This document shows, in pieces, positions 1 to 41,345 of a stretch of DNA of 64,000 bases (positions are counted from its first letter, which is position 1; each line of letters begins with the position of its first letter). The notes beneath the pieces were generated by a model. That model had not been told where the DNA came from. It did no database searches and saw only the letters and a list, made by a program, of their open reading frames with translations. Location: contig JAZRPQ010000009.1 of the NCBI GenBank assembly GCA_045649325.1, forward strand, positions 12,779-76,778, in the 5' to 3' direction. The position numbers were made by a program, and so were the translations under genes. The stretch comes from Candidatus Nanosyncoccus sp. (lineage in GTDB: Bacteria > Patescibacteriota > Saccharimonadia > Saccharimonadales > Saccharimonadaceae).

Positions 1-1019
1 AAAAGATAAATAATCGGCCCCACTATAATATATATATAGTAAGAAAATAGCCGCCATACCAGCATTGCCCAAAATACGTACCCGGTCGAAAGCCTAGAAA
101 ACACAACATAAAAAGTGCCTTCCGCCACGCCCGAGTTGCCTGGTGTTGGTACGTAATAAACCGCCGACTGGATTGCAACGCTAAGTACAAAACATTCAAA
201 GAAGTTGATATCTCCGCCAAAGGCAATCAAAACAAAAAACGGTACTAAAGAAATCAAAATATTCGAAAAAAGTGACATTAGTAGTACATTTACCATTACT
301 TCGCGCGATTTGGCGATAAGCTTTACATTTTTGGCATATTCATCTACTTCTTTCTCAACTTTTTTAATAGCAGCTTTTTTGTCCTTGACTATTCTAAGCA
401 TTGCCAAAAATTTTACAAAAACATTAATTACCTTTGCGGTAAATTTCGCCGAAAACACCGTGCCTATCACCATCGCCGGCCAAAAAGCATAAAATAAAAG
501 CCCAATCCACGCCGTCGTCAGCAGTACTGGATTTACATCCATGAATGCCCCCGCGATAAAACATGGAATCGCGATCAAAATAAATGTTACTTGCCCGGAA
601 ATCATACTATAAATCGGAATCGCCGTAGTCAGCCCAGCTGGGATTTTGCCGGTTCTTCTAAGATTGAGAATCTGGGCCGGTTGCCCGCCTACCGCCGCCG
701 GCGTAATCCTATCATAATATCGCCCAATCATCACCGTTTCAAAGCCTAGTTTAAAGGCTTCTTTTTTAGAAAAAGTGCCTGGCTTAGTCGACTTTAAAAT
801 CATCAACATATATTTCCAATATTCTAAGAGAATCATTACGATAAAACATAGCGCCGCCGGGACTAGTAGCCAACCATTTAGCTGTACCGTCGCGAGTTCT
901 GCCGCGTTTTCATTGTTGCTAAATTCATTCACGGCCGTTGCAATAATTACCGCAACGCTGAACCCAATAAAAACGGCATACAAAAGAAACTTACGGATTT
1001 TTTTGCGCGAGATGCTCAC
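1..1019 (-). CDS. UPF0104 / lysyl-phosphatidylglycerol-synthase-TM-region (flippase-like) integral membrane protein, 3' end runs off the window
   Basis: Absent from the ORF track because there is no stop inside the window. Manual minus-strand translation from GTG (1017-1019) stays open to position 1: VSISRKKIRKFLLYAVFIGF...GRYYDRITPAAVGGQPAQILNLRR...YYVPTPGNSGVAEGTFY. Multi-TM. The GTG overlaps the TGA of the upstream gene (GTGA) and follows AGGCGGAG. Confidence 0.65.
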   Translation of the reverse strand, partial: MSISRKKIRKFLLYAVFIGFSVAVIIATAVNEFSNNENAAELATVQLNGWLLVPAALCFIVMILLEYWKYMLMILKSTKPGTFSKKEAFKLGFETVMIGRYYDRITPAAVGGQPAQILNLRRTGKIPAGLTTAIPIYSMISGQVTFILIAIPCFIAGAFMDVNPVLLTTAWIGLLFYAFWPAMVIGTVFSAKFTAKVINVFVKFLAMLRIVKDKKAAIKKVEKEVDEYAKNVKLIAKSREVMVNVLLMSLFSNILISLVPFFVLIAFGGDINFFECFVLSVAIQSAVYYVPTPGNSGVAEGTFYVVFSRLSTGYVFWAMLVWRLFSYYIYIIVGPIIYL

Positions 1020-2131
1020 GAGCTCCGCCTATTTGCTAATTTAATATTTGGATATTCATCAACCAGCACTCTAATGCATCCAGCAATCGGGATGGAAATA
1101 ATCGCACCAAGTAGCCCAAACATGTACATCCCGATTGTCACTGCAGAGAGAATCATTACGGCAGGCAAGTTCAAAGCATTGCCCTGAATCTTTGGTGAAA
1201 TCAAGTTGTTTTCGATCTGTGCATATAATATATATACTACGGCAAAAATTACCCCTGCAAATGGCGCATTAAAGACCAAAATCAAGGTTACCAGTGTGCC
1301 GCCAATAAATTGCCCAAACATTGGAATCATGTAAAAAGTCATCGTGATCATCCCCATTGGTATCGCCAGCGAAGATGGAATCCCAGTGAAAAACGAAAGT
1401 ACAAAAACAATCAAAGCGGACGCACAGCCATCAAGGGTAGCTACGATTAGCTGTCTCGAAACGTAAGTCGAAATCACATTGGCCATCTTTGACAAAATTC
1501 TTTTTGCTACATTTATCGGTCGCTTGTTTTCTTCCCCACTACTGAGACTCTTCCATAGAACTTCCGTCAAGGCTGGTCCTTCTAGCAAGAATAGTAGCGT
1601 CAATACCAAGACTAGCATGATTTTCATTGCCGAATCTGCTACTCCACTCACGCTTGCTACAAAATTCGAACCAAATTGGCCAAGCAAATCTTGCGACAAA
1701 CCATTTAGCGCATTTACAATCTCGGAATGCAAATCAGAAATTCCAATTGTACGACCAAAATCGTTAATTCCCTCCCAGCCACCAAAGTTATTTTCAAACA
1801 TTTCTGGCGCATTTTTGATAAATTTAGAAGTCTCGCTAATGACTACTGGCCCTACTACCGCGATAATCCCACCGACTACCACTACCACAATAACGTAAGC
1901 AAGTATCGCCGAAAGTTTCTGGTGTTTTTTCTCGGTTCCAAAATGTTTGACAAAAAATCTGTTTACTCTGTTCACTAGTGGTCTAAGAGCCAATGCCAGA
2001 AAAATCGAAATCCCGATAACGATAAGTCCGGTCAACGCCTTAGAAAAAATTAGTATGATTATTGCAATAACTAGTGGTACTGACCAAAACTTCACAAAAG
2101 TCCTGGTGTCTGTTTCGATTAGTTTAGACAT
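1016..2131 (-). CDS. AI-2E family transporter (PerM/UPF0118-type permease)
   Basis: 371-aa ORF with about 8 predicted TM helices and UPF0118-like C-terminal half (ISPKIQGNALNLPAVMILSAVTIG). GGAGGAGG lies just upstream of the ATG. Confidence 0.8.
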   Translation of the reverse strand: MSKLIETDTRTFVKFWSVPLVIAIIILIFSKALTGLIVIGISIFLALALRPLVNRVNRFFVKHFGTEKKHQKLSAILAYVIVVVVVGGIIAVVGPVVISETSKFIKNAPEMFENNFGGWEGINDFGRTIGISDLHSEIVNALNGLSQDLLGQFGSNFVASVSGVADSAMKIMLVLVLTLLFLLEGPALTEVLWKSLSSGEENKRPINVAKRILSKMANVISTYVSRQLIVATLDGCASALIVFVLSFFTGIPSSLAIPMGMITMTFYMIPMFGQFIGGTLVTLILVFNAPFAGVIFAVVYILYAQIENNLISPKIQGNALNLPAVMILSAVTIGMYMFGLLGAIISIPIAGCIRVLVDEYPNIKLANRRSS

Positions 2132-2186
2132 TTACCTCCTCCATAGACTTATTGTAACATATTTGGTATAATAATGGTAAGAATTT

Positions 2187-2742
2187 ATGGCAAAAAAGGT
2201 TCTGATGCATACTTGCTGCGCCCCTTGCAGCGTTTATTGTATTGACTCATTGCGCGGTGAAGGCATTGAGCCAACTTGTTTTTGGTATAATCCCAACATT
2301 CACCCATATATCGAGTACAAAACTCGCCGTGACTGTCTCAAAGATTATTGCAAAAAAGTAGATGTAGAAGCCATTTTTGTTGAAGATTACGGCCTAGACG
2401 AGTTTTGTAAAAACGTCGTTTCCGATATCGAAAATCGTTGTGTCAACTACTGCTACAAAAAGCGCCTCACCGAAACGGTTCGTTATGCTGCAAAACACGG
2501 CTACGAGGCCTTTACTACTACGCTCCTCGTCTCTCCGTATCAAAAACATGAAGAATTGATCAAAGTCTGTAAAGAGCTATCTGCACTTTCTGGCGTTGAA
2601 TTTTTGTATCGTGATTTCCGTGTCGGTTTCCACGAGGGTCAGAAAAAGGCCCGCGAGGAAGGACTCTACATGCAAAAATATTGTGGTTGTATTTTTTCGG
2701 AAGAAGATAGATATAAAAAACAAATAGAAAAGGATTTAAAAA

Positions 2743-2756
<14 letters not shown>
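2187..2756 (+). CDS. queH: Epoxyqueuosine reductase QueH (DUF208)
   Basis: MHTCCAPCS, NPNIHPYIEY, FTTTLLVSPYQ and QKYCGCIFSE motifs characteristic of QueH. Confidence 0.88.
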
Positions 2757-6143
<3,387 letters not shown>

Positions 6144-6157
<14 letters not shown>

Positions 6158-6917
6158 TTAAAATCCTTTCTAATATAGGCACGATTTTGGCATATTTATC
6201 ATTTCCTACTCCATGCGCACCTGGAGTTTTGATTGCGGAAATTTTGGGATTTTCTTTAACTAGCTTTGGAATATTGTATGAAGCAATAATCTTGTCCGCT
6301 ATACCATATATAATAGTAGTTTTTCTCGTCAATCTTTTTAAGACTTCGTAATTTTTCTTATTTTGCACAATCAAAGCAAGTTCATTCTCAAAAACTTTGT
6401 CGTTTTTTAGCGCAGGCTTTTTTGCAAAAATTGCCATCTTAAATCCTTCCATGCCTACCGCGAACTTTGGTGATTCAAAATCTTTCAAAGTGTAGACCGG
6501 TGGTGAAATCAGAATTAGTTCCTTCACCATTCTTTTGTGAAGGTCGGCAAACCTCGCCGAAATCAAACATCCCATCGAATGGCCTACGAGAACTAGCGGG
6601 GTTTTGACTTTCAAACTTTCAAGCGAATTTTCTAATGCCTCTAGTTGGTCGTGCAGATCATACTTCAACTTGTCAGACTTTGGAGATTTGCCACTCCCAA
6701 GCAAATCAAAAGCCACAAACCTCACGTCCTTCAAAGAGGTGGTGCCTTCTAAATAATCAAGGGCCTTATTAAATCTCGAAGAATCATCAGCGATCCCATG
6801 AATAAAAACCACAGTGATTTTTGGTTCACCTGACGGGCAAAAATCGTGAGTCTTGGCGAGCTTAAAAGGTCGGTTCAAAATTTTGTCAAACATTTTTATT
6901 CCTTTCATCTTCTTCAA
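6144..6917 (-). CDS. Alpha/beta-fold hydrolase
   Basis: GHSMG nucleophile elbow, HG oxyanion region (FIHGIADD), about 250 aa. The true start may be an internal ATG (6893 or 6908), since the listed start overlaps the upstream gene by 32 nt. Confidence 0.7.
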
Positions 6918-26730: not shown

Positions 26731-27690
26731 CTAAACCCAGAACTCTTTTGGTAATTTGTCTGCGATTCTCTTATGAAATTCCCAATCAAACCCTTCTAGC
26801 TTGTCTGGAGTTTTGTCTTTATTGAAGTATTTGCCCCGGATATAATCAGCTGTCATTACTTCTCCCGGTATCAAAGTGTATTTTTTGCGGATATTGAGGC
26901 CTCTCTTGTAATTTTTAGGTGGCAAAACCGCCATTGGTAAGAAATCGCAATTCATCTCTGGATCTTGATAAAGCCGAAGAGCCAGGACGCTCATGGTCGG
27001 AATTACCTCTTCCTTACCCTCATAGACCGCCTGAGATTTAAATACCTTAGCCTGTCTTGTAGCAGACGGCGCCACAAATATCACACCACCGTTTTTGATT
27101 GTTTCGTGGGACAAATCCGTGTATATATCTCGAAACTCGCGCTTGATTCTATTCCCCTGTTCATAAAGGAACGTGCCTTTTTTAAGCTTCATTTTGGCCC
27201 AAGTCGAAGGCGTAATCGTCGGGGTAATAATGATCCCGAGCATTTTGATCTCGTCATAAAACGGCGCGAGAGCTTCATACCACGGCAAATTCACCGGGAA
27301 AAGCATCAAAGATTCTCCCATCACATCTGCCTTCATCAGCATGATTCGCCCAATTTCACCAAGAGACGGATGGTTAAACCCTACCACTAGCCCCTTCTTA
27401 GTATCCTTTGGGAAACCTTTATATTCTCCCGGAGCAATTTTAGATAGCCCCTTCACCATTTTCTTGCGCGCATTTTTAGAGTGCTTCTTAGGGTCTCCTT
27501 TTGGTCCAGTCGTTTTGACAAAATAATCTACCGCCGCTTTGCAGACCTTCCCTACCGGCACCATTTCCTTGCGCAAGTTCTCCGCGCCGAGTGTCTTTAG
27601 CAAAGAATAATTTTCGTAAATAATCTTGCGATTAATTTCCCCCGCAGAAAGAGTCTCTAACTCTTCTTTAGTAAAAATTTTTTTACTCAT
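26731..27690 (-). CDS. Putative acyltransferase (PlsC/LPLAT-like, divergent)
   Basis: FNHPSLGE (H-x4-E variant of the H-x4-D motif) and FVAPSATRQ (resembles the FPEGTR block). Weak recognition only. Confidence 0.35.
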   Translation of the reverse strand: MSKKIFTKEELETLSAGEINRKIIYENYSLLKTLGAENLRKEMVPVGKVCKAAVDYFVKTTGPKGDPKKHSKNARKKMVKGLSKIAPGEYKGFPKDTKKGLVVGFNHPSLGEIGRIMLMKADVMGESLMLFPVNLPWYEALAPFYDEIKMLGIIITPTITPSTWAKMKLKKGTFLYEQGNRIKREFRDIYTDLSHETIKNGGVIFVAPSATRQAKVFKSQAVYEGKEEVIPTMSVLALRLYQDPEMNCDFLPMAVLPPKNYKRGLNIRKKYTLIPGEVMTADYIRGKYFNKDKTPDKLEGFDWEFHKRIADKLPKEFWV

Positions 27691-27752: not shown

Positions 27753-27827
27753 TGGGGATTCGCCAAGTGGTAAGGCACTGGGTTCTGGTCCCAGCATTCG
27801 GGGGTTCGAATCCCTCATCCCCAGCCA
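27753..27827 (+). tRNA. tRNA-Gln (anticodon CTG)
   Basis: Folded by hand: acceptor TGGGGAT/ATCCCCA, anticodon stem CTGGG/CCCAG with loop TTCTGGT, T-arm GGGGG-TTCGAAT-CCCTC, encoded CCA. Confidence 0.9.
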
Positions 27828-28139: not shown

Positions 28140-29249
28140 ATGAAAAATATCACAAAAGAAAGGATTGTAGATATTTTGCTCTACGCAGGTGTAGGGCCAG
28201 ATAACTACGAAATGGTAAAGCCTGCCATCATCAGAGCGAACAGAATTGCGGTCAAAGCCCTATCGACTGCTGCTGCGATTCTTATTGCCGTCATGTTGAT
28301 TGGCGCTTTTAGGATGCAAGGCATCCGAAGCAATCAGATTGTCTACTTAGTCGGTCTGATTATCACTGGAGCTATGGCTATTTGCTCCATCAAGCTAGAT
28401 CGGGCCTCTTTGGTCAGACCCATGGTTTATTTGTGTTATTCCGTATTTTACCTTTACGGGATTATGATCGGAACGATCACTGACCCAGGCGAGAAGACCG
28501 TCACCTTTATGGTGATGCTAGTGCTGATGCCAATGGTGTTCGTAGATCGGCCTTTGCACGTTTTCTTCGTCTCATCGGCATACATAGCTCTTTTTATTGG
28601 GCTATGTCTTCATACCAAGACCGGCAATGCTCTCGAGAACGACATCATTGATGCAATCGTTTTTGGTATGCTGGGTATGACTACTGGTGTGCTTAGTGAT
28701 TACATCAAGATACATGGCTATGTAGACCAAATCCGATTGAAAGAGATTTGCCTCAAGCTTAGGGACAAATCTCGTGTTGATGCGCTGACTGATATGCAGA
28801 ATCGTAACGCTTACGAAGCCGATTTTTGCAAAGTCGCCAAGCGCTGCGAGGAATCACTCGGCTGCATCTATATAGACGTTAATGGTCTGAAGGACCTAAA
28901 CGACACGCTCGGTCACGAAGAAGGCGACAAAATGCTCAAGGTCGTCGCTGACTGCGTCAAGAAATACTTCGGAGAGGAGTTTTCTTATCGCGTCGGTGGA
29001 GACGAATTTGTCTCCTTTGTCATAGATCCCAAAAGCTACGGGATTAAAGACATGGTGGATGATTTCCTCGCCGAGATTCATAATTGGGATTATTATGCAT
29101 CCGTGGGCTGGAAAATCCACAAACTAGATACGCTCTCGATGAAGGATCTAATCGCCGGCGCCGAGAGTGAAATGTATAAAAAGAAGGTAGACTTCTACAA
29201 ACAGGTCGGTTTCGATCGGCGTAGCAGTCATAACCATACTAATGACTAA
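28140..29249 (+). CDS. Membrane-bound diguanylate cyclase (GGDEF domain)
   Basis: About 6 N-terminal TM helices, then DALTDMQNRNAY...YIDVNGLKDLNDTLGHEEGD...RVGGDEFV, with the GGDEF active site intact. Confidence 0.85.
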   Translation: MKNITKERIVDILLYAGVGPDNYEMVKPAIIRANRIAVKALSTAAAILIAVMLIGAFRMQGIRSNQIVYLVGLIITGAMAICSIKLDRASLVRPMVYLCYSVFYLYGIMIGTITDPGEKTVTFMVMLVLMPMVFVDRPLHVFFVSSAYIALFIGLCLHTKTGNALENDIIDAIVFGMLGMTTGVLSDYIKIHGYVDQIRLKEICLKLRDKSRVDALTDMQNRNAYEADFCKVAKRCEESLGCIYIDVNGLKDLNDTLGHEEGDKMLKVVADCVKKYFGEEFSYRVGGDEFVSFVIDPKSYGIKDMVDDFLAEIHNWDYYASVGWKIHKLDTLSMKDLIAGAESEMYKKKVDFYKQVGFDRRSSHNHTND

Positions 29250-29317: not shown

Positions 29318-32300
29318 CTATTCGCTTCTCAGTGCTTCTACTGGGTCTTTCTTTGAGGCAGCTCTCGCCGGGATTAACCCACCAATCAGAGTCAAAACAA
29401 TAGAGAGTAAAATCAGAATCACCGCGGCATTCGGATAAAGTTGCGCCGAGAGCGGAATATCGCCCGTGAAATGGTGCAAAACCAAATTGATTAAAGGAAT
29501 CACTAAATACGAAAAGGAAATTCCAAAGAGCCCGGACAAAAGTCCCACAATAAAAGTTTCCGCATTAAAGATACTCGAAATGTTGTGTTTCGAAGCCCCA
29601 ATCGCTCTAAGGATCCCAATTTCTTTCGTTCTCTCATAGACCGAAATATAGGTGATCACCCCAATCATAATCGACGAGACTACGAGTGAAATCGAGACAA
29701 AGGCGATCAAAACATAAGAAACTGCATCCACGATTACCTTGACCGATCCCATCAGAATCCCCGTCGTATCCGTATATTCTATTACTTTGTCATTTTGTCC
29801 GTATGATTCCATCAGCACATTGTAGTTATCTACAAACTCCATAAACTTCGTCTTAGAATCAAACGAATTAAAATAGAACGAAATTCTAAACGGATCGTCC
29901 AAATCTTGATATCCCATCAAGGCCAGGTTCGTGCTAAGCGTCGCCTCAGACTTATCGAACATTGCCGAAACCACTCTCGAAAGTTCCTCTTCAGAAAAGT
30001 TTAGTTTAAATGCCGAGAGTAGCGCCTCTTGATCCAAAGAGAACGCGTTAGCAAAGCTAGTAGAAAGATACTGCGTCAGTCCTCCTACTGCCGTTAAGAT
30101 CTCCGATTTCATTACAATTTCGGTGACCGTGATTGAAAACGCCTTGATGGTTTGGTCAACTATTTCTTCGTCTCCAGACAAAGAATATCCCACCATCCCC
30201 TTGAAAAACAGCGCAAATTGTTCATTAGAAATCAGATATTTTTCTGTAAATTCAGAGAAATCTTGTTCCGCCATAAACTCGTCTAGAAGTTCTGCGGTTT
30301 TTTCTGGTGTCAAATCTGCTGGCGCAATTTCTCCTGACATGATTTTGCCCTGCAAATACAGCTCAAACCCTCTCACCAGTGCATCTTTTTTGTTGGTCAA
30401 ATCCGTCTGTACCGGCGAAATATCCGCCGTAATATCATCCGAAATTTTTGTCATATATTCAGAAGTTTTTGCTGTGATCGCATTTTGATTGATCGTCGTC
30501 TTAAAAGCCGAAGAAATCTTACTCTCGTCAATCGAAACCAAATCGGAAAATTCAAAATTAAAGTTGTTCTTTTTCTCGCCAAATTTGGTATTAGAAAAGA
30601 CGTCAATTGTAGGATTTTGCAGTTGTCTTTGCACAATCTCGCTGTGTTCAGATTTTTCGATGATATGGGTGACTAAAGACGGCAAATATAGAATTCCGCT
30701 GCCCATACCAAAGTTAGAATCAGGTGTTACGATGCCGACAATTTTTAGTTCTTCAGACTTAGTATCGTAGATATTCTGCATATAGGCGGTGTCATCAGAC
30801 ATATCTTCATAGACTTCATATTTTTCGTTGTATTTGTATATGTCAGCAGGCAAAATCAATCTTAGTTTAGCATTCATGATATCATCATATTCAAGCGTCA
30901 GCGGTTCTTCGGACAAATCAACGTATTCTCCACCCATTATTTTGGTGATGGAATTACTGATTTTGTCAGTATCATGAAAACCCAGCGAATAAGTCAAAAA
31001 ATCCGAAATCCTCGTCGGATCAGACAAAAACACCACCATTTCGTTGTATTTTTCTGGGTATCTACCAGCCACCAATTTCATGTCGTCTCGGATATTTTCT
31101 GGGGCATATTGCACAAATGCCGAGGTGAGGTTGGAATAAGAATTCATCAAAGAGTTAGACCCGAGTACCGTTTCAAACAAACTGTTAGGGTTCAATTTTG
31201 CTAGCTCGTTAGTCGCGTCAATCGTATAAATTATTGGGTCGATATTGTATTCGTATTCAATCAAACGTATGTCATCTTCGACCTCATCATAATGATTATC
31301 TAGATAGGTCCGGAAACTTTTTAGGTCGTTCTTCGTCACACTGCCGAGCGTAGAAGACATCACTGGATCCTCATGTAGTTTGCCATCATCTGGTGCCGGT
31401 CCCCCGCCACCAGTTAAGCTAAGCAGCATACCAGCAATATTGGTCGACTCTTTTTGTAGTGACAAAGGATAGGACGTCAAAGTGTCTTGTTCGATTTTAT
31501 CAATATAAGATTGAAACCCAGTCGAAACCGCCAAAATCAGCGCAATCCCGATAATCCCAATCGATCCCGCCGCCGCCACCAGTATAGTACGAGCTTTTTT
31601 GGTCAGAAGATTGTTGAACGACAAAGACAGTGCCGTAAAAAACGACATTTTAGTCTTGTGCTGTTTCTTTGCCACGGCTTCTTCGTCTAGCGTAGTATTG
31701 GCTTTTCCATCGTAAATATTCGAATCAGAAGTTATCTCGCCGTCTTTCAAAGTGATAATCCTAGTAGCATACTTTCTAGCGAGCTCAGGGTTGTGTGTCA
31801 CCATGATTACAAGCCGAGTTTTAGAAATCTTTTTCAAAATTTCCATCACTTGGAGGCTAGTGTCAGAATCTAGAGCACCAGTTGGCTCGTCCGCAAGTAG
31901 AATATCCGGATTGTTCACTAGAGCTCTAGCGATCGCCACACGTTGCATCTGTCCACCCGAAAGTTGTGCCGGACGCTTATTGATATGCTCGATAAGTCCT
32001 ACTTCTTCTAGAGCTTTTTTGGCTCTCCTTACTGCCTCGGTTTTAGAAATCCCCGAAAGTGTCAAAGCTAGCTTTACGTTATTCAGAATCGTCTGATGCG
32101 AAATCAAATTGTAACTTTGGAACACAAAACCGATCCGGTGGTTGCGGTAGGCGTCCCAATCTTTATCTTTAAAATCCTTGGTCGAAATCTCATTGATAGA
32201 AAGGTCCCCAGCATCATAATTGTCTAGCCCGCCGATGATATTTAGGAGGGTAGTTTTGCCAGACCCGGATGGCCCCAAAATCGCCGCAAATTCTGATTCA

Positions 32301-32386
32301 CGAAAATTCAGCGAAACGGACTTTAAAACTTTTTGTTTTTTGCCCGCCGTGTCATAGACTTTAGATACGCCTCTAAGTTCTAACAT
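29318..32386 (-). CDS. Fused ABC transporter: ATPase plus MacB/FtsX-type permease with a very large extracytoplasmic domain
   Basis: Walker A GPSGSGKTT, signature LSGGQMQRVAIARAL, Walker B ILLADEPTGALD. One TM helix, an ~600-aa external region, and a C-terminal FtsX-like 3-TM bundle. 1022 aa. Confidence 0.85.
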   Translation of the reverse strand: MLELRGVSKVYDTAGKKQKVLKSVSLNFRESEFAAILGPSGSGKTTLLNIIGGLDNYDAGDLSINEISTKDFKDKDWDAYRNHRIGFVFQSYNLISHQTILNNVKLALTLSGISKTEAVRRAKKALEEVGLIEHINKRPAQLSGGQMQRVAIARALVNNPDILLADEPTGALDSDTSLQVMEILKKISKTRLVIMVTHNPELARKYATRIITLKDGEITSDSNIYDGKANTTLDEEAVAKKQHKTKMSFFTALSLSFNNLLTKKARTILVAAAGSIGIIGIALILAVSTGFQSYIDKIEQDTLTSYPLSLQKESTNIAGMLLSLTGGGGPAPDDGKLHEDPVMSSTLGSVTKNDLKSFRTYLDNHYDEVEDDIRLIEYEYNIDPIIYTIDATNELAKLNPNSLFETVLGSNSLMNSYSNLTSAFVQYAPENIRDDMKLVAGRYPEKYNEMVVFLSDPTRISDFLTYSLGFHDTDKISNSITKIMGGEYVDLSEEPLTLEYDDIMNAKLRLILPADIYKYNEKYEVYEDMSDDTAYMQNIYDTKSEELKIVGIVTPDSNFGMGSGILYLPSLVTHIIEKSEHSEIVQRQLQNPTIDVFSNTKFGEKKNNFNFEFSDLVSIDESKISSAFKTTINQNAITAKTSEYMTKISDDITADISPVQTDLTNKKDALVRGFELYLQGKIMSGEIAPADLTPEKTAELLDEFMAEQDFSEFTEKYLISNEQFALFFKGMVGYSLSGDEEIVDQTIKAFSITVTEIVMKSEILTAVGGLTQYLSTSFANAFSLDQEALLSAFKLNFSEEELSRVVSAMFDKSEATLSTNLALMGYQDLDDPFRISFYFNSFDSKTKFMEFVDNYNVLMESYGQNDKVIEYTDTTGILMGSVKVIVDAVSYVLIAFVSISLVVSSIMIGVITYISVYERTKEIGILRAIGASKHNISSIFNAETFIVGLLSGLFGISFSYLVIPLINLVLHHFTGDIPLSAQLYPNAAVILILLSIVLTLIGGLIPARAASKKDPVEALRSE

Positions 32387-32404
32387 TATTTCTATTATAC
32401 CACA

Positions 32405-33349
32405 CTAAAAGGCCAAAATAAATGTGGTATTTTTGGCTGATTTTGCGGTTAGCTTCCAATGGTTTTTCTCTGCTACTGATTTTGCAATGGCGAGCCCCAG
32501 TCCTACTCCGTCTTTGCTTTTGTCAACCTGATAAAATCTATCAAAGATATGCGGTAATTTGTCAGAAGAAATTTTAGCTCCGTCGTTGGAAACTTCTAAA
32601 CTATGGTCAGTGAGTTTTACCGTGATGTTTTTCTTGGAATATTTTATTGCGTTGTCGAGGAGAATCGAGAAAATTTGCTCAAAATCCTCCGCCGAGATTT
32701 TTGTTGTTATCCCCGTTTCGATTTGCCTAGCCAAATTCTTTTTAGAAAGTCTTGACTCAAACCTATCTATCACTTTCAAAACCAGCTCAGAAAGATTGGT
32801 CTTAGCTGGTTCTTTTTCGGCCATCAAATCCGTTCGCGCAAGAGCGAGCAACTCGTTATTTAGGCTAGTTAATTTGTCAGTTTCGATCACTACGTTATCA
32901 ATCCACTTATTGCCATGAATGTCAGCCGCCTCGAGATTCGCCGAAATCGAAGCAAGTGGTGTCTTAATCTCGTGTGAAGCGTTGGCGATGAAGATTTTTT
33001 GTGCTTCGTAAGCCTCTTTTACTGGTTTGATTGCCTCTTCGGCCAGAAAATATGATACCAGCACTACTGCAATTTCGATCGCCGTGCCCGACAGGACTAA
33101 GGTAAGTAGCAAATTGCTTGCAGCATTTTGCTTTTCTTCGCGTACGGAATTCATCACCATTTCTTTTACTTCGTCCGGCACCAAATCCGTCGGCATTTCG
33201 CCCCCGCCCATGTCTTCGCGAATGTAAAGCGGGCGATTCTCGGCTGATTTAGTAGAAATAAGATAAATCATCGCAAATACCGCCACTACAATAAAAGTAG
33301 TGATAGAGAAATTGATAAAAATTAAACGATTTCGAAGTTTCTTAAACAT
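32405..33349 (-). CDS. Sensor histidine kinase (two TM helices, short extracytoplasmic loop)
   Basis: H-box SHEIKTPLASI, N-box LLDNAIKYS, G-box DGVGLGLAIAK. Confidence 0.88.
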   Translation of the reverse strand: MFKKLRNRLIFINFSITTFIVVAVFAMIYLISTKSAENRPLYIREDMGGGEMPTDLVPDEVKEMVMNSVREEKQNAASNLLLTLVLSGTAIEIAVVLVSYFLAEEAIKPVKEAYEAQKIFIANASHEIKTPLASISANLEAADIHGNKWIDNVVIETDKLTSLNNELLALARTDLMAEKEPAKTNLSELVLKVIDRFESRLSKKNLARQIETGITTKISAEDFEQIFSILLDNAIKYSKKNITVKLTDHSLEVSNDGAKISSDKLPHIFDRFYQVDKSKDGVGLGLAIAKSVAEKNHWKLTAKSAKNTTFILAF

Positions 33350-33353
33350 ACTT

Positions 33354-34010
33354 TTACCTCACTAATTTATACCCAAGATTTCGGATAGTTTTGATTTCGA
33401 CTTTTGATTTTAGAGCTTTTAGTTTTTTCCTCAGATAACTCATATATACCTCCACGTAATTCTCATCATGCCCCGAATCATCTCCCCATACATGTGCTAA
33501 AATTTGTTCTTTCGAAACTGCCTGCTCAGGATTTTTGATCAACATGAGCAGGATTTCGCCTTCTTTGTCGGTCAGTGGCTCGCCATTGAGAGTTCGATTG
33601 TTAAGATCATATTTCAAATCTTCAAACTCCAAAACTTCCGCTTCCGCCATTGGCGGCCGACGTGTAACGGCGTTAATTCTCGCAATTAGCTCTGCTGTCT
33701 TAAACGGCTTTGCTAGGTAATCATCTGCACCCCTTTCTAGACCTTTGATTTTGTCTTCTACTTCGTTAAGCGCAGAAAGCATGATTACTGGAGTTTGCAC
33801 TCCCCTCTTTCTGATCGTCTCCAAAATTTGAAGACCCGAAAGTGAAGGCAGCATGATATCTAGTACGACACAGTCGTAATTTGGCTTCAGAGCAAGTTTC
33901 AACCCTTCTTCTCCATCGTGGGTCCAGTCTACGGCGATTTTATTGTTCTTTAGGATATGTATCACCGCTTCGGCCAAAAATTCTTCGTCTTCTACATATA
34001 GTATTCTCAT
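33354..34010 (-). CDS. OmpR/PhoB-family response regulator
   Basis: Receiver domain (ILYVEDEE...DCVVLDIMLP...KPF) plus winged-helix domain (LTDKEGEILLML...IKTIRNLGYKL). Confidence 0.9.
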   Translation of the reverse strand: MRILYVEDEEFLAEAVIHILKNNKIAVDWTHDGEEGLKLALKPNYDCVVLDIMLPSLSGLQILETIRKRGVQTPVIMLSALNEVEDKIKGLERGADDYLAKPFKTAELIARINAVTRRPPMAEAEVLEFEDLKYDLNNRTLNGEPLTDKEGEILLMLIKNPEQAVSKEQILAHVWGDDSGHDENYVEVYMSYLRKKLKALKSKVEIKTIRNLGYKLVR

Positions 34011-34011
34011 T

Positions 34012-35511
34012 TTACCTCCTTTGTCCTGGGCTCATTTGCCCCTGATTATTTTGTTCTGGCCCTGGCTGGGTCTGGCCAGGCTGTCCTTGCCCATTCTGGC
34101 CGCCGCCCATATTTTGGAAACCACCATTCCCTACTGTTGTAGTGACGCCAGAAACTGTAAAGGTTTCATATGGGGAATCGTTTATATAAATAGTATAGGT
34201 TTCCCCACTCTCAAGCGCACTTGCCCCAGCAGCTAGATGGTTAAAAGTCTTAGCCGAAGTATGTGAAAGCACTGTTTCGCTAGCAGAATTTTTGATTTCA
34301 ATTTTTGTGCCAGCAGACAAAGCCGAAGCAAAGTATACGCTGATATTATATACCGAAGAAGATGAACCAAGCGTTTCTGCCATTCCGCTCGCTCCGACTG
34401 CTATTACTGTGCCGCCATTTATTGTAATCCCCGCTCCTGCATCCAGTGCGCCATTGCCATTATTGGCCGGGCCATCTACGACCACCGTGCCACCATTAAA
34501 GTACAAATACCCGTTCGAATCTATCCCGTCTCCCGCGGCATTAATATATATATTGCCACCGGCAATCACGATCTTACAATTCTCGTCCGCAGCCATCGGG
34601 TCCTTGGACGACGAATCCGCTCCACCACCAGCATTAATCCCATCGTCATTTGCCACAATCGAAATTGTACCGTCGTTAATAGAAATTCTTTGTGCCTCAA
34701 GCCCCTCGTAAGATTTGGCAATATCAATCGTCCCGCCGTCAATGATTAGGGCTTGGTATGCTGTAATTCCATCATCGCCAGCACTAATTTTGACATCGCC
34801 ATTCTCGATAAGGATAAATCCCTTGGTCGAGTCGGTTTCGTTGGTAGATTTGATCCCGTCAGCCGAGGCGATAATCTCAAAAGTCCCATTTTCAATATGA
34901 ACAGAATCTTTGCCGCGCACCGCGTCGTCTGCGGCTGTGATATTGTACCTACCAGAGCGGAAAGTCAAATCATCTTTCGAAACAATCCCGTCTGCGTGAT
35001 TAGCCTTTAGAGTCAGCGTCCCGTCGCCAGTAAAAGACAAATCCGACTTAGAATAAATTGCTCCGGTCACGTCTTCGTCCCAGCTGGAATTATATTTAGT
35101 GCCATCCTCAAGATAATTTTCGCCCTGGAGCTTAATCACTACGTCGTTAGCCATAAAACAGGCAATCGCCGGCCCAGAAGAGTTCTTGATCGTGACTCCA
35201 TTTAAGACTATCTGTACTACTGCTTCGGAGTTTGCATTTATGATGATGGCGCCATCATCCAGAGTCCCGCTAAAATAGTAAGTTCCAGATGTCGTAATGG
35301 TATAAGTCTCGCTAAGTTCCACATTGTAAGACGGATATCGGCTCCAGTCTATTTTCAAATCACCATTGTCTATATTGAAAGAGCTAGAACTACCGCTGAT
35401 GATAGTGCTATTTTGGTTATAATTTAGGTTGATTGCTACGCCGAGTCCTATCATCAGCCCGACTAGCACCACCCCCGAAGCCACCCACTTCCAGTTATTA
35501 TCTTTTTCCAT
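34012..35511 (-). CDS. Cthe_2159-type carbohydrate-binding beta-helix protein, N-terminally membrane-anchored
   Basis: N-terminal TM helix, repeated DGI/DGT-containing beta-helix turns (ADGIVSKDD, ADGIKST, DDGITAY, DDGINAGGG, GDGIDSNG), and a G/Q/P-rich tail. Confidence 0.7.
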   Translation of the reverse strand: MEKDNNWKWVASGVVLVGLMIGLGVAINLNYNQNSTIISGSSSSFNIDNGDLKIDWSRYPSYNVELSETYTITTSGTYYFSGTLDDGAIIINANSEAVVQIVLNGVTIKNSSGPAIACFMANDVVIKLQGENYLEDGTKYNSSWDEDVTGAIYSKSDLSFTGDGTLTLKANHADGIVSKDDLTFRSGRYNITAADDAVRGKDSVHIENGTFEIIASADGIKSTNETDSTKGFILIENGDVKISAGDDGITAYQALIIDGGTIDIAKSYEGLEAQRISINDGTISIVANDDGINAGGGADSSSKDPMAADENCKIVIAGGNIYINAAGDGIDSNGYLYFNGGTVVVDGPANNGNGALDAGAGITINGGTVIAVGASGMAETLGSSSSVYNISVYFASALSAGTKIEIKNSASETVLSHTSAKTFNHLAAGASALESGETYTIYINDSPYETFTVSGVTTTVGNGGFQNMGGGQNGQGQPGQTQPGPEQNNQGQMSPGQRR

Positions 35512-35522
35512 TGGTCTCCTTT

Positions 35523-36197
35523 CTAAAGCTCTTCCTCTTGCACTGGCTGACTGAGAGAAACTTTAAGATTACAGTTCTTTACCCGGATTGCGTCCAGCAT
35601 TTCCTTTTCTTTGATGCCGCTTTTTAAGCGTACGTTGTAAGTCAAATCATATAGGCTACCCATGTTTACAGTCTTAGCCGTCACAAGATCCACGCGCGAA
35701 AGATATTTTTTGAAAATATCATCAAAAACTTCTGTATAATCCATGTCTTCTGGCACTACGATTTTTAATACTTTTTCTTTGCGGCTCGGCTCGAGTACTG
35801 GAGACAAGGCAAAGAAAGCCATCGCTATAACCCCAATCGCCGTCATCACTGCGCCAAACAGCACGTGTCCCATCCCACAAGAAAGCCCAATCATCATTGC
35901 AAAGAAAATCGAAAGTAGGTTTCTAGCGTTTCCTCGCATCGAACGAAAACGAATCAAAGAGAATGCTCCGAGAATCGCGATGGAAGTCCCTAGATTTCCG
36001 TTTATCATCACCATTACGGCCATCACGAGAAGCGGCAAAATCGTGAGGGTGACGAGAAACCCTTTGGTGGTATTATTTACTGTAAAACGATGTGCTATGG
36101 CAAGTACTAGCCCCATCAAAAGCGCTGCGCCCGCCGCGATCAAAGCTGTCTGGATCTCCATTCCAGTTGTGCTTGTATCAAATATACTATTAAACAT
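35523..36197 (-). CDS. DUF4956 family membrane protein
   Basis: 3-4 TM N-terminal half (IRFRSMRGNARNL motif) plus a soluble C-terminal domain. Typical partner of bacterial VTC-domain proteins. Confidence 0.7.
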   Translation of the reverse strand: MFNSIFDTSTTGMEIQTALIAAGAALLMGLVLAIAHRFTVNNTTKGFLVTLTILPLLVMAVMVMINGNLGTSIAILGAFSLIRFRSMRGNARNLLSIFFAMMIGLSCGMGHVLFGAVMTAIGVIAMAFFALSPVLEPSRKEKVLKIVVPEDMDYTEVFDDIFKKYLSRVDLVTAKTVNMGSLYDLTYNVRLKSGIKEKEMLDAIRVKNCNLKVSLSQPVQEEEL

Positions 36198-36918
36198 TTT
36201 TTTCTCCTTTCTTTATTAATTCGTATATTTTTCCAATTTTCGAAAACTGTACCGGATAAGCCTGCTCTTTCGACAAAAGTTTTACCAGCCATAGCGGCAT
36301 TACTCCATGCGCTTTGACTTCCATAATGATATTTTTGTCGTCTTTAAAATATTTTTTGTCGCTAGATTTTTTGATGAAAGAAAGGTCCGTGTCGCGGTAA
36401 CTTAAATTCTCATCAAAAGTGATTCGAAGCCCATCAGAAGAAACATAACTCTCTCGATCATAATAAACCAAAATCCGTGGTTTCAAATCGAAATAGTTTA
36501 AGATATAGTCCACTTCCTTTGCGATTTGTAGATCGTTGTTAGTTTTTATCATTTGCTCTGCTAGCTCTAACGCGGTCTTTTTTCCGGCTACTAATTTTTG
36601 GTAATCTTTGTGGGTGATAAGAAATCTTCTTTTGTGCCCCACTCGATATTCTTTTTGCTTCATTTTGGTTTTGATTTCAAGGAAGACTTTGCCATAGCCC
36701 TCATAAGACCTGGCCCGCAGTTTTTCCTTGAAATCTGGATTGTCAATGGATTTGACAATGAGATCAAAATTGTCGGTGTCAAAATAGATATTCATCACTC
36801 CCGACTTAAAATACCCGTCCTTTTCCATATTCTTCTGGACTTCTTTTAAAATCTCCTTTTTCTGTTTCTTGGAGATTAGGTATTTCTTTTCGACTCTATC
36901 AAATACTTTGGTGTCCAT
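36190..36918 (-). CDS. VTC-domain (polyphosphate polymerase-like, triphosphate-tunnel fold) protein
   Basis: FDRVEKKYLI start, KLRARSY, FLEIKTK, LRITFDENL, IMEVKA strands typical of PF09359/CYTH-like tunnels. Start set at ATG 36918, 6 nt after a TATAAT box (the listed start 36933 is a TTG). Confidence 0.75.
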   Translation of the reverse strand: MDTKVFDRVEKKYLISKKQKKEILKEVQKNMEKDGYFKSGVMNIYFDTDNFDLIVKSIDNPDFKEKLRARSYEGYGKVFLEIKTKMKQKEYRVGHKRRFLITHKDYQKLVAGKKTALELAEQMIKTNNDLQIAKEVDYILNYFDLKPRILVYYDRESYVSSDGLRITFDENLSYRDTDLSFIKKSSDKKYFKDDKNIIMEVKAHGVMPLWLVKLLSKEQAYPVQFSKIGKIYELIKKGEKNV

Positions 36919-36983
36919 GCCTACATTATACAATGGAAACCTTAAAAAAATCTTGAAAAAAAGTATATCAAATCAGACTTTCC

Positions 36984-39037: not shown

Positions 39038-39062
39038 ACCCGCCAACTTGGCGGGTTTTTAA
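39038..39062. terminator. Bidirectional terminator
   Basis: ACCCGCC-aactt-GGCGGGT followed by TTTTT, between convergent genes. Confidence 0.7.
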
Positions 39063-40021
39063 AAGTTAGAGAAATATTGTGACCAGTGAGTTTGGTATTT
39101 GGTATTAGCGTCATAATAAAACCCGACTGCAAGCTTGGTAAAGTTTGGATTCAAAATATTTTCGCGGTGCTTTTCGGAGTTCATCCAGGCAGCCACTGCT
39201 GTTTCTGGCGAAACTGCAGAGTTCCCTACTACTAGATTCTCTCCCTCGATATAGGAACCAAATCCTGACGGTTCTATGCAGGCGGTATCCCAATCTGATC
39301 CATCTGGTCTAGTGTGCGAGTAGACCTGCACAATCTCTTCGGCTCGGATTTTCGCTGCGTCGGTACAACTATCTCCCCAAGTCAGCTTCTCTAGACCATT
39401 TCGTACCCGCTCTTGATTTACTAGAGAGAGTACTTCGTATTTCCATTTTTCTGATGGTACTTCCAGTACGTACACGTCTATCGAGTCCCGTCTAGTGCCG
39501 TCATAAGTACCTGCCGTAATGGTAGTTTTTCCTACTCCTGCAACGATCGGGAAACGACAAGTGTCAGAAGAATATCCTAGCCACGTCCTGGCAGTCGCGT
39601 AAAAGCCAGAAATTACACTAGTGTTACTAGTCTGCCAATACATAGAGCCAAGGTTTTTTAAATCTCCACCTACGCAAATATCGACATTGGCAGTCTGATA
39701 TATAAAAATCGAATCTCCAGCCCAGAGCTCCCCGCTAGGGACAGGGTCAGAATCCATCCCGGTATTAGTGCGCACGGAAGTGACATAGGCCTTTTCTTCC
39801 TCGGTTAACTCTACTTTATTGTTGCTCTCGGCACCAATCATCTCCGACTGAGAAACACTATCAGAAACTTCATCGGTTCTCTCGTCCACTACCCTGAAGT
39901 CTAGTCCGCCGTTTAACCAAATAGCACCAGCAATCAAAATTCCCGCGATCAAAATTGCCGCCGCATTCAGCGAGAGCAAAATCGTCATCCTGGTGTGTTT
40001 AAGACTTGCTGCGGCTGCCAT
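39059..40021 (-). CDS. CAP/SCP/PR1-like (YkwD-type) domain protein with N-terminal TM helix and Ig-like middle domain
   Basis: LVNQERVRNGLEKLTW...HTRPDGS...GENLVVG...AVAAWMNSEKHRENILNPNFTKLAVGF. Confidence 0.78.
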   Translation of the reverse strand: MAAAASLKHTRMTILLSLNAAAILIAGILIAGAIWLNGGLDFRVVDERTDEVSDSVSQSEMIGAESNNKVELTEEEKAYVTSVRTNTGMDSDPVPSGELWAGDSIFIYQTANVDICVGGDLKNLGSMYWQTSNTSVISGFYATARTWLGYSSDTCRFPIVAGVGKTTITAGTYDGTRRDSIDVYVLEVPSEKWKYEVLSLVNQERVRNGLEKLTWGDSCTDAAKIRAEEIVQVYSHTRPDGSDWDTACIEPSGFGSYIEGENLVVGNSAVSPETAVAAWMNSEKHRENILNPNFTKLAVGFYYDANTKYQTHWSQYFSNF

Positions 40022-41345
40022 TTTCTATCAGCGTCCCCATTAAGCTAACTATCATCGTAATCTCTACCAAATCTTTGTGCTCCAAAATAGATTTTGAAAT
40101 CGGACGGCCAAAGACCATCTGCCCTACTACTTTACCATTAGCCCCAGTCATCAATGCAACTCTAGAAATATCCGCTTCCTTCAAATTTGTCACGCCAAGC
40201 TTGCTAGTGTCTTGCCAAGCTCCACGCATCGGCGCCGGTAGTTGGGAGATTGTAGACAAAAGATCATTGGAAATTTTGCAGTCTCCTACTACATAGAACT
40301 TGCCATTTATAATTATTCCAACATAAGAAAAATGTAGATGCTCAGCCAGAAAACCCGAAACTTCCTTGAGATTCATTTTTTTAGGGTTTTCTCTGGACAA
40401 CTTCTTCACGATAAAAGGCAAGTTGATTTGTTTGGTCATAATTAGGGATTTAGTCAGACTGATGATTTCCGAAAATGCTGGGACCAACGCTAGTACGATT
40501 GCCACCATGATGAAGTTCAAAAGAATCACCTGGAAAGATGGGTTGGCAACTTTAAATAGAGCCGAAAATACCAAATGGAATATCAGAAGATACACAATAA
40601 ACGCCCCAGAAAGCAGTACTACAGCAGAAAGCATCTTGAGCCACCTGACGTTGATTGCTACCATTTTATACTTTAGAATTGAGAAGTAAAAGCCAAGAAT
40701 AGTAAGACCAATTGTGATCGGACCCACCCAAATCAAATCGTATCTAGTAAGTGGCAAAATCAAATCAAAAATCCCAGACAAAACCCCAGTACACATCATG
40801 CCGATCAGAAAGAATAAATATCCACGTTTGGAGTTTTCGTTGCTTGCGTGCTTGATTTGCCGAATCAAGAAGAAGAAAATGGTCAGATTTAGTAAGAAGA
40901 AGAAAGTTAGATAGGCGATGTAATATGGACTTAGCCCGACCGCTACGCTGTTGCCCGAATCTTTCAAAACAATTTCAGAATATAAAATCGACGGGTTGTA
41001 GATTAGTAGCGTTGCTAAAATTATCGAAAAAGCGATGAAGACTAGTGAGGAGGATTTGCCAAATTTGTATTTCCAGGAGACGTAGGCCAAAAGTCCGGCA
41101 TCCATAATCAATGCGCCGATATAAATCCCGAGCACCAGATGCGGGGCTACTCTATAATCTACTTCACCATTACCGAGCGACAAAAACACCGCAATCGAAA
41201 CCGCCCAGATTACTTCCCCAATCGCAGCTACTAGAAACCACACACTACGGGGCTTTTCGGACTTTGCGCTACCAAAAACTAGCGCCAGTGCCGCAAGAAT
41301 CGTTAGAACTGCTACCGCAATTACTAACATGTAAATAAAATGCAT
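39999..41345 (-). CDS. Multi-pass membrane protein with cytoplasmic C-terminal domain (possible sensor)
   Basis: About 9 TM helices followed by a ~140-aa soluble domain. SD GGAGG. Overlaps the CAP gene by 23 nt. Confidence 0.45.
   Translation of the reverse strand: MHFIYMLVIAVAVLTILAALALVFGSAKSEKPRSVWFLVAAIGEVIWAVSIAVFLSLGNGEVDYRVAPHLVLGIYIGALIMDAGLLAYVSWKYKFGKSSSLVFIAFSIILATLLIYNPSILYSEIVLKDSGNSVAVGLSPYYIAYLTFFFLLNLTIFFFLIRQIKHASNENSKRGYLFFLIGMMCTGVLSGIFDLILPLTRYDLIWVGPITIGLTILGFYFSILKYKMVAINVRWLKMLSAVVLLSGAFIVYLLIFHLVFSALFKVANPSFQVILLNFIMVAIVLALVPAFSEIISLTKSLIMTKQINLPFIVKKLSRENPKKMNLKEVSGFLAEHLHFSYVGIIINGKFYVVGDCKISNDLLSTISQLPAPMRGAWQDTSKLGVTNLKEADISRVALMTGANGKVVGQMVFGRPISKSILEHKDLVEITMIVSLMGTLIENGSRSKS

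Follow-up and report, generated by a model that had tools for sequence, protein, structure and literature searches.

Organization of the locus

The stretch of Candidatus Nanosyncoccus sp. DNA analyzed here, 64,000 nt in length and referred to below as the window, carries on its minus strand a tightly packed block of six genes, which encode a VTC-domain protein, a DUF4956 membrane protein, a Cthe_2159-family beta-helix protein, a response regulator (RR), a histidine kinase (HK) and a MacB-type ATP-binding cassette (ABC) transporter (Table 1; all coordinates are window positions). Judged by its sequence, the locus clearly exemplifies a bacterial cassette that is widespread, apparently uncharacterized and equipped with an intact catalytic site of the Vtc4 type. 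A first-pass annotation of this DNA had proposed the six genes as one operon, with junctions of -8, 11, 1, 4 and 18 nt; all six are present in the list of open reading frames (ORFs) at the positions given there, the junction sizes are reproduced from the ORF coordinates, and each of the six domain assignments is backed by Pfam.

Table 1. Genes, candidate regulatory sites and flanking features of the six-gene block
Feature	Position	Strand	Remarks
VTC gene	36190..36918	-	ORF list; ATG start; a TTG alternative extends to 36933
DUF4956 gene	35523..36197	-	ORF list; 8-nt overlap with the VTC gene
Cthe_2159 beta-helix gene	34012..35511	-	ORF list
RR gene	33354..34010	-	ORF list
HK gene	32405..33349	-	ORF list
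MacB-type ABC gene	29318..32386	-	ORF list
Tandem direct repeat TTTTTCAAG-A-TTTTTTTAAGG	36940..36960	-	~11-nt periodicity; at the -35 position; candidate operator
Extended -10 promoter TGTATAAT	36925..36932	-	Predicted; 6 nt before the VTC ATG at 36918; leaderless type
Second promoter TGTGGTATAAT	32394..32404	-	Predicted; directly behind the HK stop codon, its end 7 nt short of the ABC ATG at 32386
tRNA-Gln	27753-27827		Flanks the block
GGDEF gene	28140..29249	+	Pfam GGDEF; membrane diguanylate cyclase; convergent on the ABC gene

For the VTC gene, the ATG at 36918 is probably the true start since all homologs begin there (M1 is invariant). Both of the promoters proposed in the first-pass annotation, one at the head of the operon and one abutting the HK stop codon (TAG, 32407-32405), were found and are of the TATAAT type. 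A generic promoter and terminator scan was uninformative, its promoter matches not being above shuffle expectation, so support for these promoters rests on the genome-wide TATAAT pattern: a TATAAT box followed after 5-9 nt by the start codon is found at no fewer than 13 of the 63 called genes of the window and is a genome-wide habit, not chance. Leaderless-type starts, with TGnTATAAT located 5-9 nt before the start codon of first genes, are spread over the whole window, with examples at 7884, 9553, 13744, 26703, 27690, 32386, 42893, 46594, 47493, 47657, 54823 and 54838. The internal genes for DUF4956, Cthe_2159, RR and HK have AAAGGAG-type Shine-Dalgarno sites instead. This distribution of leaderless TATAAT starts and internal Shine-Dalgarno sites therefore argues for two transcription units, the first (unit 1, 36960-32405) a predicted five-gene leaderless transcript VTC-DUF4956-Cthe_2159-RR-HK and the second (unit 2) the ABC gene alone, which would be transcribed separately from its own promoter.

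A bacterial VTC protein with the Vtc4 active site

The VTC protein, 242 amino acids (aa) long, contains no domain other than VTC and, by hydropathy, no transmembrane (TM) segment. Residues 13-232 match positions 2-226 of the 235 positions of the Pfam VTC profile (PF09359) with an E-value of 1.8e-35 and 123.1 bits, against a cut-off of 23, and HMMER aligns the center of the protein to yeast Vtc4. Foldseek searches with its AlphaFold2 model (pLDDT 94.2) returned top matches that were all Vtc4 (3g3q, 3g3r and 7ytj_D; TMq 0.75-0.78, E ~1e-15), followed by the inactive Vtc3 and Vtc2 subunits and then by CYTH-type tunnel enzymes at ~0.5. The reference used for alignment by hhalign was a Vtc4 sequence verified as identical to PDB chain 8i6v_E, and the comparison gave a probability of 98.4. 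The catalytic set of Vtc4 is composed of K200, R264, R266, K281, Y359, R361, E426, S457 and K458, the last of which is missing from the inactive Vtc2 and Vtc3 subunits (10.1101/2023.01.27.525886). All nine residues are identical in the VTC protein of the window (in the same order K12, R68, R70, K83, Y153, R155, E200, S226 and K227), including K227 as the equivalent of K458, the residue which separates active Vtc4 from inactive Vtc2 and Vtc3. Across 49 homologs (33-62% identity) seven of the nine are invariant, S226 is kept by at least 90%, and at the position of Y153 tyrosine is the majority residue. Profile searches of the PDB made piecewise with the N- and C-termini gave chance matches only.

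The fold and the nine residues bear out the earlier proposal of a Vtc4-type tunnel enzyme, and a check of the tunnel residues which had been set beforehand found none of them lost in the alignment, so that the claim is not refuted. There is thus good reason, from both sequence and model, to regard the protein as a soluble Vtc4-like triphosphate-tunnel enzyme and a putative polyphosphate polymerase. The family to which it belongs is large, with 3262 clusters at 50% identity (E<=1e-3). One alternative is that the VTC protein carries out another tunnel chemistry, as a triphosphatase, nucleotide cyclase or signaling enzyme, and that the cassette is an envelope-stress signaling module. Triphosphatases and adenylate cyclases do occur in the tunnel superfamily, where they are the weaker structural matches of the model, and no product is known for bacterial VTC proteins; the match is nevertheless specific to the Vtc4 family, both in Pfam and in the TMq values, which are clearly higher than for CYTH-type enzymes, and the full Vtc4 residue set is kept down to the K458 equivalent. 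We consider this alternative very improbable.

Conservation and distribution of the cassette

VTC loci were sampled with a degenerate DNA pattern (E-x-K...P-x-W...[FY]-S-K-x-G motifs), taking one genome per species, and the neighbors were counted from our own ORF calls and hidden Markov models (HMMs). Most of the resulting 120 loci are from Bacillota (Clostridia, Ruminococcus, Lachnospiraceae, Erysipelotrichaceae, Streptococcus sanguinis, Paenibacillus and Lentilactobacillus); the others include a Bifidobacteriaceae locus, some Saccharibacteria and one archaeal metagenome-assembled genome (MAG). DUF4956 is located directly 3' of VTC in 82 of 109 loci, and in half of these (41/82) the two genes overlap, the 8-nt overlap being the commonest form with 23 cases. 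The VTC and DUF4956 genes, which had been singled out as a tight pair, are thus widely conserved as such, with the 8-nt overlap kept across taxa. The third gene after this pair is Cthe_2159 in 41 of 52 loci, and a two-component system is directly adjacent to the VTC cassette in 43 of the 120. We define the cassette as VTC-DUF4956-Cthe-RR-HK, the arrangement present in the window; the predicted unit 1 is a member of this five-gene cassette, which is common to many Bacillota and Saccharibacteria, and the cassette is not special to this genome. The cultivable carriers Streptococcus sanguinis, Paenibacillus pabuli, Anaerotruncus colihominis and Clostridium sartagoforme make the function of the cassette directly testable.

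Part of this gene association has been noted before. Genes for CotH, a polyphosphate polymerase and DUF4956 (and in some cases DUF4832) adjoin the pel operons of Gram-positive bacteria, with no function assigned (Whitfield et al., 10.1101/768473), and the NELoc-2 locus of C. perfringens holds VTC, "tubulin/FtsZ" and CotH genes, again with no function assigned (PMC2879425). These clusters share with our locus the VTC-DUF4956 core pair beside a secreted or surface protein, and a metagenomic locus described below (L176) represents the CotH variant. They differ in the outside partner, which in the window and in the 41 loci mentioned above is a Cthe_2159 beta-helix protein and not CotH, and in the pel operon, which is absent from the window, where instead a dedicated OmpR/HK pair is attached. 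CotH was not among the top 25 Pfam families listed for the neighbors in our pattern-selected sample. In the searchable literature no functional study was found of DUF4956, of the bacterial VTC domain or of a Saccharibacteria cassette, in agreement with the first-pass annotation, which knew of no experimentally defined function for bacterial VTC and DUF4956 proteins.

Two further observations were made in the sampled loci. A VTC gene in a Methanomassiliicoccales-binned contig (L060, 1625-2386) has no adjoining DUF4956 or Cthe_2159 gene; this archaeal VTC gene could be the result of gene transfer or of a binning error. Matches to TPM_phosphatase and to zinc ribbons were each found three times downstream of VTC-DUF4956-Cthe_2159, in loci which, to judge by their repeated gene sizes, are presumably L016, L043 and L074 (Erysipelotrichaceae, Solobacterium). 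The TPM family is a family of putative extracytoplasmic phosphatases.

At least 120 cluster representatives with 63-100% identity were found for the VTC gene, and Saccharibacteria is the only organism named among them. The closest locus (L045, phmmer E 2.4e-117) and L001/L002 (73% VTC identity) have a six-gene order identical to that of the window. L007 (70%) has VTC-DUF4956-Cthe-ABC without the sensor pair; in L003/L004 (65%) the sensor pair is divergent upstream and the ABC gene lies three genes further on; L005/L006 (66%) have the ABC gene divergent and directly upstream, and no sensor pair; and L008, of unknown taxon (45%), has VTC-DUF4956-Cthe only. The constant core is therefore VTC-DUF4956-Cthe_2159, with the ABC gene always near but mobile and the sensor pair not always adjacent. 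Since the GC content of the block (0.40-0.46) is the same as that of the rest of the window, homologs are found throughout the lineage and synteny is conserved, the block is by these sequence features a native, lineage-wide feature of Saccharibacteria and not a recent accessory island. The first-pass annotation had called it an accessory block and had suggested a test for horizontal transfer; a recent acquisition is rejected because of the absence of a GC anomaly and the lineage-wide conservation and synteny.

The membrane and surface partners

The DUF4956 protein (224 aa; Pfam DUF4956, 4e-14) was modeled with moderate confidence (AlphaFold2, pLDDT 76.5, pTM 0.58) as four TM helices (15-39, 45-64, 91-108 and 112-131), a short helix and loop at 65-90 and a C-terminal domain of beta-alpha-beta-beta-alpha-beta order which is ACT-like. 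The 65-90 segment, with the loop motif NGN...GAFSLxRFRS, contains the most conserved residues of the whole family (N66, N68, G70, G77, F79, L81, R83, F84, R85, S86 and G89). By the positive-inside rule this Arg-rich loop and the C-terminal domain are predicted to be cytoplasmic. Among Saccharibacteria homologs the conservation of DUF4956 exceeds that of VTC.

The first-pass annotation had compared the VTC-DUF4956 pair to a split machine coupling synthesis to translocation, by analogy with the yeast complex. A profile of DUF4956 searched against the PDB gave no match and no Vtc chain, and a fold search with the model matched the C-terminal domain weakly to ACT and ferredoxin-like folds and did not find Vtc1; on these grounds DUF4956 as a homolog of the Vtc1-like channel was rejected. 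Of the earlier proposal, the Vtc4-type tunnel enzyme and the conserved pairing with DUF4956 stand, while the likeness of DUF4956 to Vtc1 does not, and the resemblance to the yeast channel holds as an analogy only because DUF4956 has neither sequence nor fold similarity to Vtc1. An oligomer of DUF4956 could still form a conduit. Matches to MgtC (PF02308) cover the TM region in 37 of 65 DUF4956 members, all of them below the gathering threshold (best E 0.0011), and the score of the window protein is likewise sub-threshold (E 0.41). DUF4956 resembles the MgtC/SapB/YhiD proteins in its architecture, a small N-terminal part with several TM helices and, behind it, an ACT-like domain at the C-terminus, and one source (JGI) labels some DUF4956 members "YhiD"; it differs from them in the NGN...RFRS loop, which is specific to DUF4956. 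The MgtC family is known as one of regulatory membrane proteins and not of channels.

The third protein of the cassette (499 aa) belongs to the Cthe_2159 family (Pfam PF14262, 4e-75, 252.8 bits) and matches the founder structures 4peu and 4phb at an E-value of 1.6e-26. The single N-terminal TM anchor predicted by hydropathy at residues 9-27 supports the earlier view of this protein as extracytoplasmic and membrane-tethered. More than half of the sampled loci (68/120) hold a Cthe_2159 homolog, and of these 65 have an N-terminal hydrophobic segment and 46 a lipobox; by this signal the Bacillota homologs would mostly be lipoproteins. The founder Cthe_2159 is described as a beta-helix protein that binds both cellulose and the linear polyanion polygalacturonic acid (10.1101/401869). 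The C-terminus of the window protein (34012-34120, minus strand) is a G/Q/P-rich low-complexity tail ending in ...PGQRR, and the end of the beta-helix gene in L007, just upstream of the ABC gene, appears to encode a tail with a similar ending.

These two partners bear on where the product of the VTC protein would go. One possibility is that the VTC protein is a cytoplasmic polyphosphate synthase. DUF4956 would then resemble MgtC in serving as anchor or regulator and would sense a small ligand through its ACT-like domain, while the beta-helix protein would be no more than a co-regulated surface protein and no polymer would cross the membrane. The intact VTC active site, the weak MgtC similarity of so many DUF4956 members together with the ACT-like domain and the lack of any channel-like match, and the fact that bacterial polyphosphate granules are normally cytoplasmic are all in its favor. 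It does not readily account for the third gene, which encodes an extracytoplasmic tethered protein in 41 of 52 loci and is replaced by extracellular CotH/LTD proteins in the other variant; the tight packing of the operon and this steady linkage to outside proteins are hard to explain without outward transfer. We regard a purely cytoplasmic synthase as unlikely.

The two-component pair and a candidate operator

The RR is of the OmpR/PhoB type (218 aa; Pfam Response_reg and Trans_reg_C) and the HK (314 aa) has HisKA and HATPase_c domains, two TM helices with an outside loop of ~50 aa, and neither HAMP nor any other sensor domain. The window RR scores a median of 172 bits against VTC-linked Bacillota regulators versus 96 bits against unrelated ones, and the window HK a median of 101 bits against VTC-linked kinases versus 39 bits against background. 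Sensor pairs recur in three placements relative to the cassette: upstream and co-directional, upstream and divergent, or downstream, as in the window. The VTC-linked kinases of Bacillota have sensor regions of ~180 aa which are mutually similar, each with 12-29 partners, whereas the sensor of the saccharibacterial kinase is shortened to ~104 aa. A dedicated sensor pair with a short sensing loop, as described in the first-pass annotation, finds support in these data.

The pair could also have belonged to the ABC gene. BceRS-BceAB-type modules have the order RR-HK-ABC, a kinase with a minimal loop and a promoter for the ABC genes right behind the kinase gene, and the window shows this same order, a short-loop kinase and an ABC promoter in that place. 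The permease of the window is however of the fused four-TM MacB type and not a ten-TM BceB with a separate ATPase, the RR and HK group with VTC-linked pairs of Bacillota that have no ABC neighbor, and some Saccharibacteria retain the ABC gene without the sensor pair. Because of the adjacency in 43 of the 120 loci and the higher scores against VTC-linked pairs the sensor pair is assigned to the VTC cassette, and a Bce-type module was rejected on the same two grounds.

Upstream of the VTC promoter, at the -35 position, lies a tandem direct repeat whose spacing suits an activator of the OmpR/PhoB type and which is a candidate operator. The repeat, in the general form TTTT(T)AA-N4-5-TTTTTAAG, is found 8-10 nt upstream of the VTC -10 element in the window, L001, L003, L007, L008 and L045, and in a weaker form in L005; in the window the repeat motif has 3 matches versus 0.2 expected in shuffles. 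The direct-repeat motif is absent upstream of the Bacillota VTC genes. No operator common to the VTC and ABC promoters was seen by eye, no formal motif search having been made.

The MacB-type ABC transporter

The product of unit 2 is a protein of 1022 aa with fused ABC_tran and FtsX domains (Pfam). Hydropathy places its TM segments at 268-286, 893-911, 945-963 and 987-1005, giving an order of nucleotide-binding domain (NBD), TM1, an outside domain of ~605 aa and three TM helices (FtsX), which is the topology of MacB; MacB is also its best match among solved structures (PDB) and in NCBIfam. Pfam, topology and these best matches support the earlier assignment as a fused MacB-type ATPase and FtsX-type permease. 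The protein shares with the type VII systems (MacB, LolCDE, FtsEX) an N-terminal NBD fused to four FtsX-type TM helices with the outside domain between TM1 and TM2. It differs from MacB in the outside domain (29705-31525, minus strand), which is presumably about three times the size of that of MacB and has no Pfam match at E<=1, in its score against the MacB equivalog (NF007826), which at 279.8 bits is far below the cut-off of 966, and in having no evident adaptor or partner in an outer membrane.

When metagenomes were scanned with the permease part, 576 related stretches were identified, the best 80 of which were examined. These are 32-52% identical over the whole of the outside and TM region, and several are labeled human gut. 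Only one of the 80 loci (L176) is linked to VTC, the remaining 79 having no VTC, DUF4956 or Cthe_2159 gene nearby, and the ABC transporter is therefore a member of an independent, widespread family. In Saccharibacteria the ABC gene is located within five genes of the cassette in every examined locus whose flanks are long enough to show it, with varying position and strand, whereas only one of ~105 non-Saccharibacteria VTC loci (L073) has a giant ABC gene; the association of the ABC gene with the cassette is essentially specific to Saccharibacteria. L073, from an "uncultured Clostridium" MAG (787-6660), has VTC-DUF4956 and no Cthe_2159 gene in its 8-kb stretch, and its ABC homolog (998 aa, 43% identity) lies 1.4 kb away on the opposite strand. 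In L176 (3016-12436; 27% GC) the nearest relative that the giant ABC gene has among the metagenomic stretches adjoins a CotH-variant cassette with the order LTD+CotH (926 aa), LTD protein, VTC, DUF4956, Zn-dependent phospholipase C, a small ORF and ABC (1051 aa); the VTC gene of this locus is divergent and CotH-linked, and was missed by HMM and ORF caller and recovered by tblastn. These two co-occurrences of the ABC gene with VTC-DUF4956 are suggestive but not significant.

The first-pass annotation had read all six genes, including the ABC transporter, as one surface-polymer machine. In support of such a machine, the ABC gene stays within five genes of the cassette in Saccharibacteria loci despite inversions and loss of the sensor pair, and L073 and L176, neither of them from Saccharibacteria, each carry a homolog of the giant ABC gene at a distance of two to three genes from VTC-DUF4956. 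This has to be set against the predicted promoter of the ABC gene itself, the 79 of the best 80 ABC-family loci which are devoid of cassette genes and the single occurrence in the ~105 VTC loci outside Saccharibacteria; the adjacency may also be merely inherited gene order, since the Saccharibacteria neighborhood is syntenic as a whole. With an ABC gene which shifts in position and strand and whose family is so rarely VTC-linked, the six genes do not behave as one co-conserved unit, and we find the six-gene machine improbable.

Proposed mode of action and significance

Our tentative preference goes to a reading of the five-gene cassette as a sensor-controlled, membrane-associated polyphosphate polymerase of the VTC type, whose product probably goes outward, to a tethered beta-helix protein that would bind polyanions; this reading draws on the observed gene structure, conservation, catalytic residues, folds and topology. 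Under this proposal the soluble VTC protein would build polyphosphate from ATP in its Vtc4-like tunnel while attached to an oligomer of DUF4956, the four-TM protein whose Arg-rich loop and ACT-like domain would be on the cytoplasmic side, and the overlapping stop and start codons would fix the proportion of DUF4956 to VTC. The polymer would be passed to, or through, the membrane and bound at the outer face by the tethered beta-helix protein. The OmpR/HK pair would sense an envelope signal and drive the operon via the direct repeats at the -35 position, which would amount to autoregulation since the operon contains the RR and HK genes. The ABC transporter of unit 2, as a Saccharibacteria-specific neighbor, may act on the same envelope process.

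The proposed system is like the eukaryotic VTC complex in Pfam family and fold, in all nine triphosphate- and Mn-binding residues including the K458 equivalent, in the partnership of the catalytic domain with a small multi-TM protein and in the expected destination of the product, which is topologically outside the cytoplasm (in yeast, the vacuole lumen). It is unlike that complex in that the window VTC protein has no SPX domain and is soluble, not fused to three TM helices; in its DUF4956 partner, in which four TM helices are combined with an ACT-like domain and no similarity to Vtc1 can be detected; and in the extracytoplasmic beta-helix (or CotH) partner and two-component regulator which the bacterial cassette adds.

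Several points weigh against a sensor-controlled polymerase with outward delivery. The foremost is DUF4956, in whose sequence no similarity to the channel helices of Vtc1 or Vtc4 is detectable and whose sole hint of kinship is to MgtC, so that export is unproven; its model is moderately confident and the conserved loop reaches a pLDDT of only ~54-63. Bacteria tolerate cytoplasmic polyphosphate, and coupling of synthesis to export is therefore not needed as it is in yeast. For none of the bacterial VTC proteins does the searchable literature report an enzyme activity or a product, and Cthe_2159 has been described as a carbohydrate binder, which leaves the binding of polyphosphate by the beta-helix protein a guess. 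As for the operator motif, its sequence is AT-rich and simple shuffles were the only control, and the pattern by which loci L010-L129 were collected may favor one VTC subfamily.

Polyphosphate synthesis in bacteria is ascribed to PPK1 and PPK2, and VTC is regarded as the polymerase of eukaryotes. Against this background, a large bacterial family of stand-alone VTC proteins appears to keep the full Vtc4 active site, and does so in a conserved, sensor-controlled operon with a membrane and a surface protein. If polyphosphate is made, and especially if it is exported, a further synthase would become known in bacteria and possibly, with it, a new envelope polymer, the long-noted linkage of VTC, DUF4956 and CotH would be explained, and a simple two-protein system for synthesis coupled to translocation would be at hand. 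In its fullest form the idea is that of a third bacterial polyphosphate route in many Bacillota and Saccharibacteria, in which a VTC polymerase on a DUF4956 platform extrudes polymer to the surface, where it is held by the tethered beta-helix protein or used by an extracellular CotH kinase, possibly as a phosphoryl donor where ATP is absent, with the whole unit under two-component control. We think this rather unlikely, though were it true surface polyphosphate would be an unrecognized, regulated envelope polymer of Gram-positive-type cells. The retention of the cassette in the reduced genome of Saccharibacteria suggests that it is important for their envelope or epibiotic lifestyle.

Neighboring genes

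The tRNA gene and the GGDEF gene which had been reported next to the block were both confirmed. The GGDEF motif is intact in the translation of the cyclase, and the convergent GGDEF-ABC arrangement is also found in L007. The cotH-VTC-DUF4956 clusters of Bifidobacterium likewise hold a cyclase/phosphodiesterase gene (10.1101/768473). Among the matches listed for the rest of the window, which cover 25 of 92 Pfam families, none is polyphosphate-related. Envelope genes shared as neighbors in other Saccharibacteria include GH97, PGA_cap, CAP, sortase and a beta-lactamase-like gene.

An ORF of 319 aa at 26731-27690 (minus strand) has a leaderless-type promoter and no Pfam or NCBIfam match; unannotated ORFs of comparable size (318-332 aa) adjoin a glycogen-phosphorylase-like gene in L003, L005 and L007. 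At 39999-41345 (minus strand) a protein of 448 aa matches histidine kinases in their N-terminal 7TM region alone (HisKA_7TM, E 3e-7) and has no kinase core, and its gene overlaps by 23 nt with a CAP-domain gene (39059-40021, minus strand). A pair made up of a 449-aa 7TM gene and a CAP gene recurs in the Saccharibacteria loci L001 and L007.

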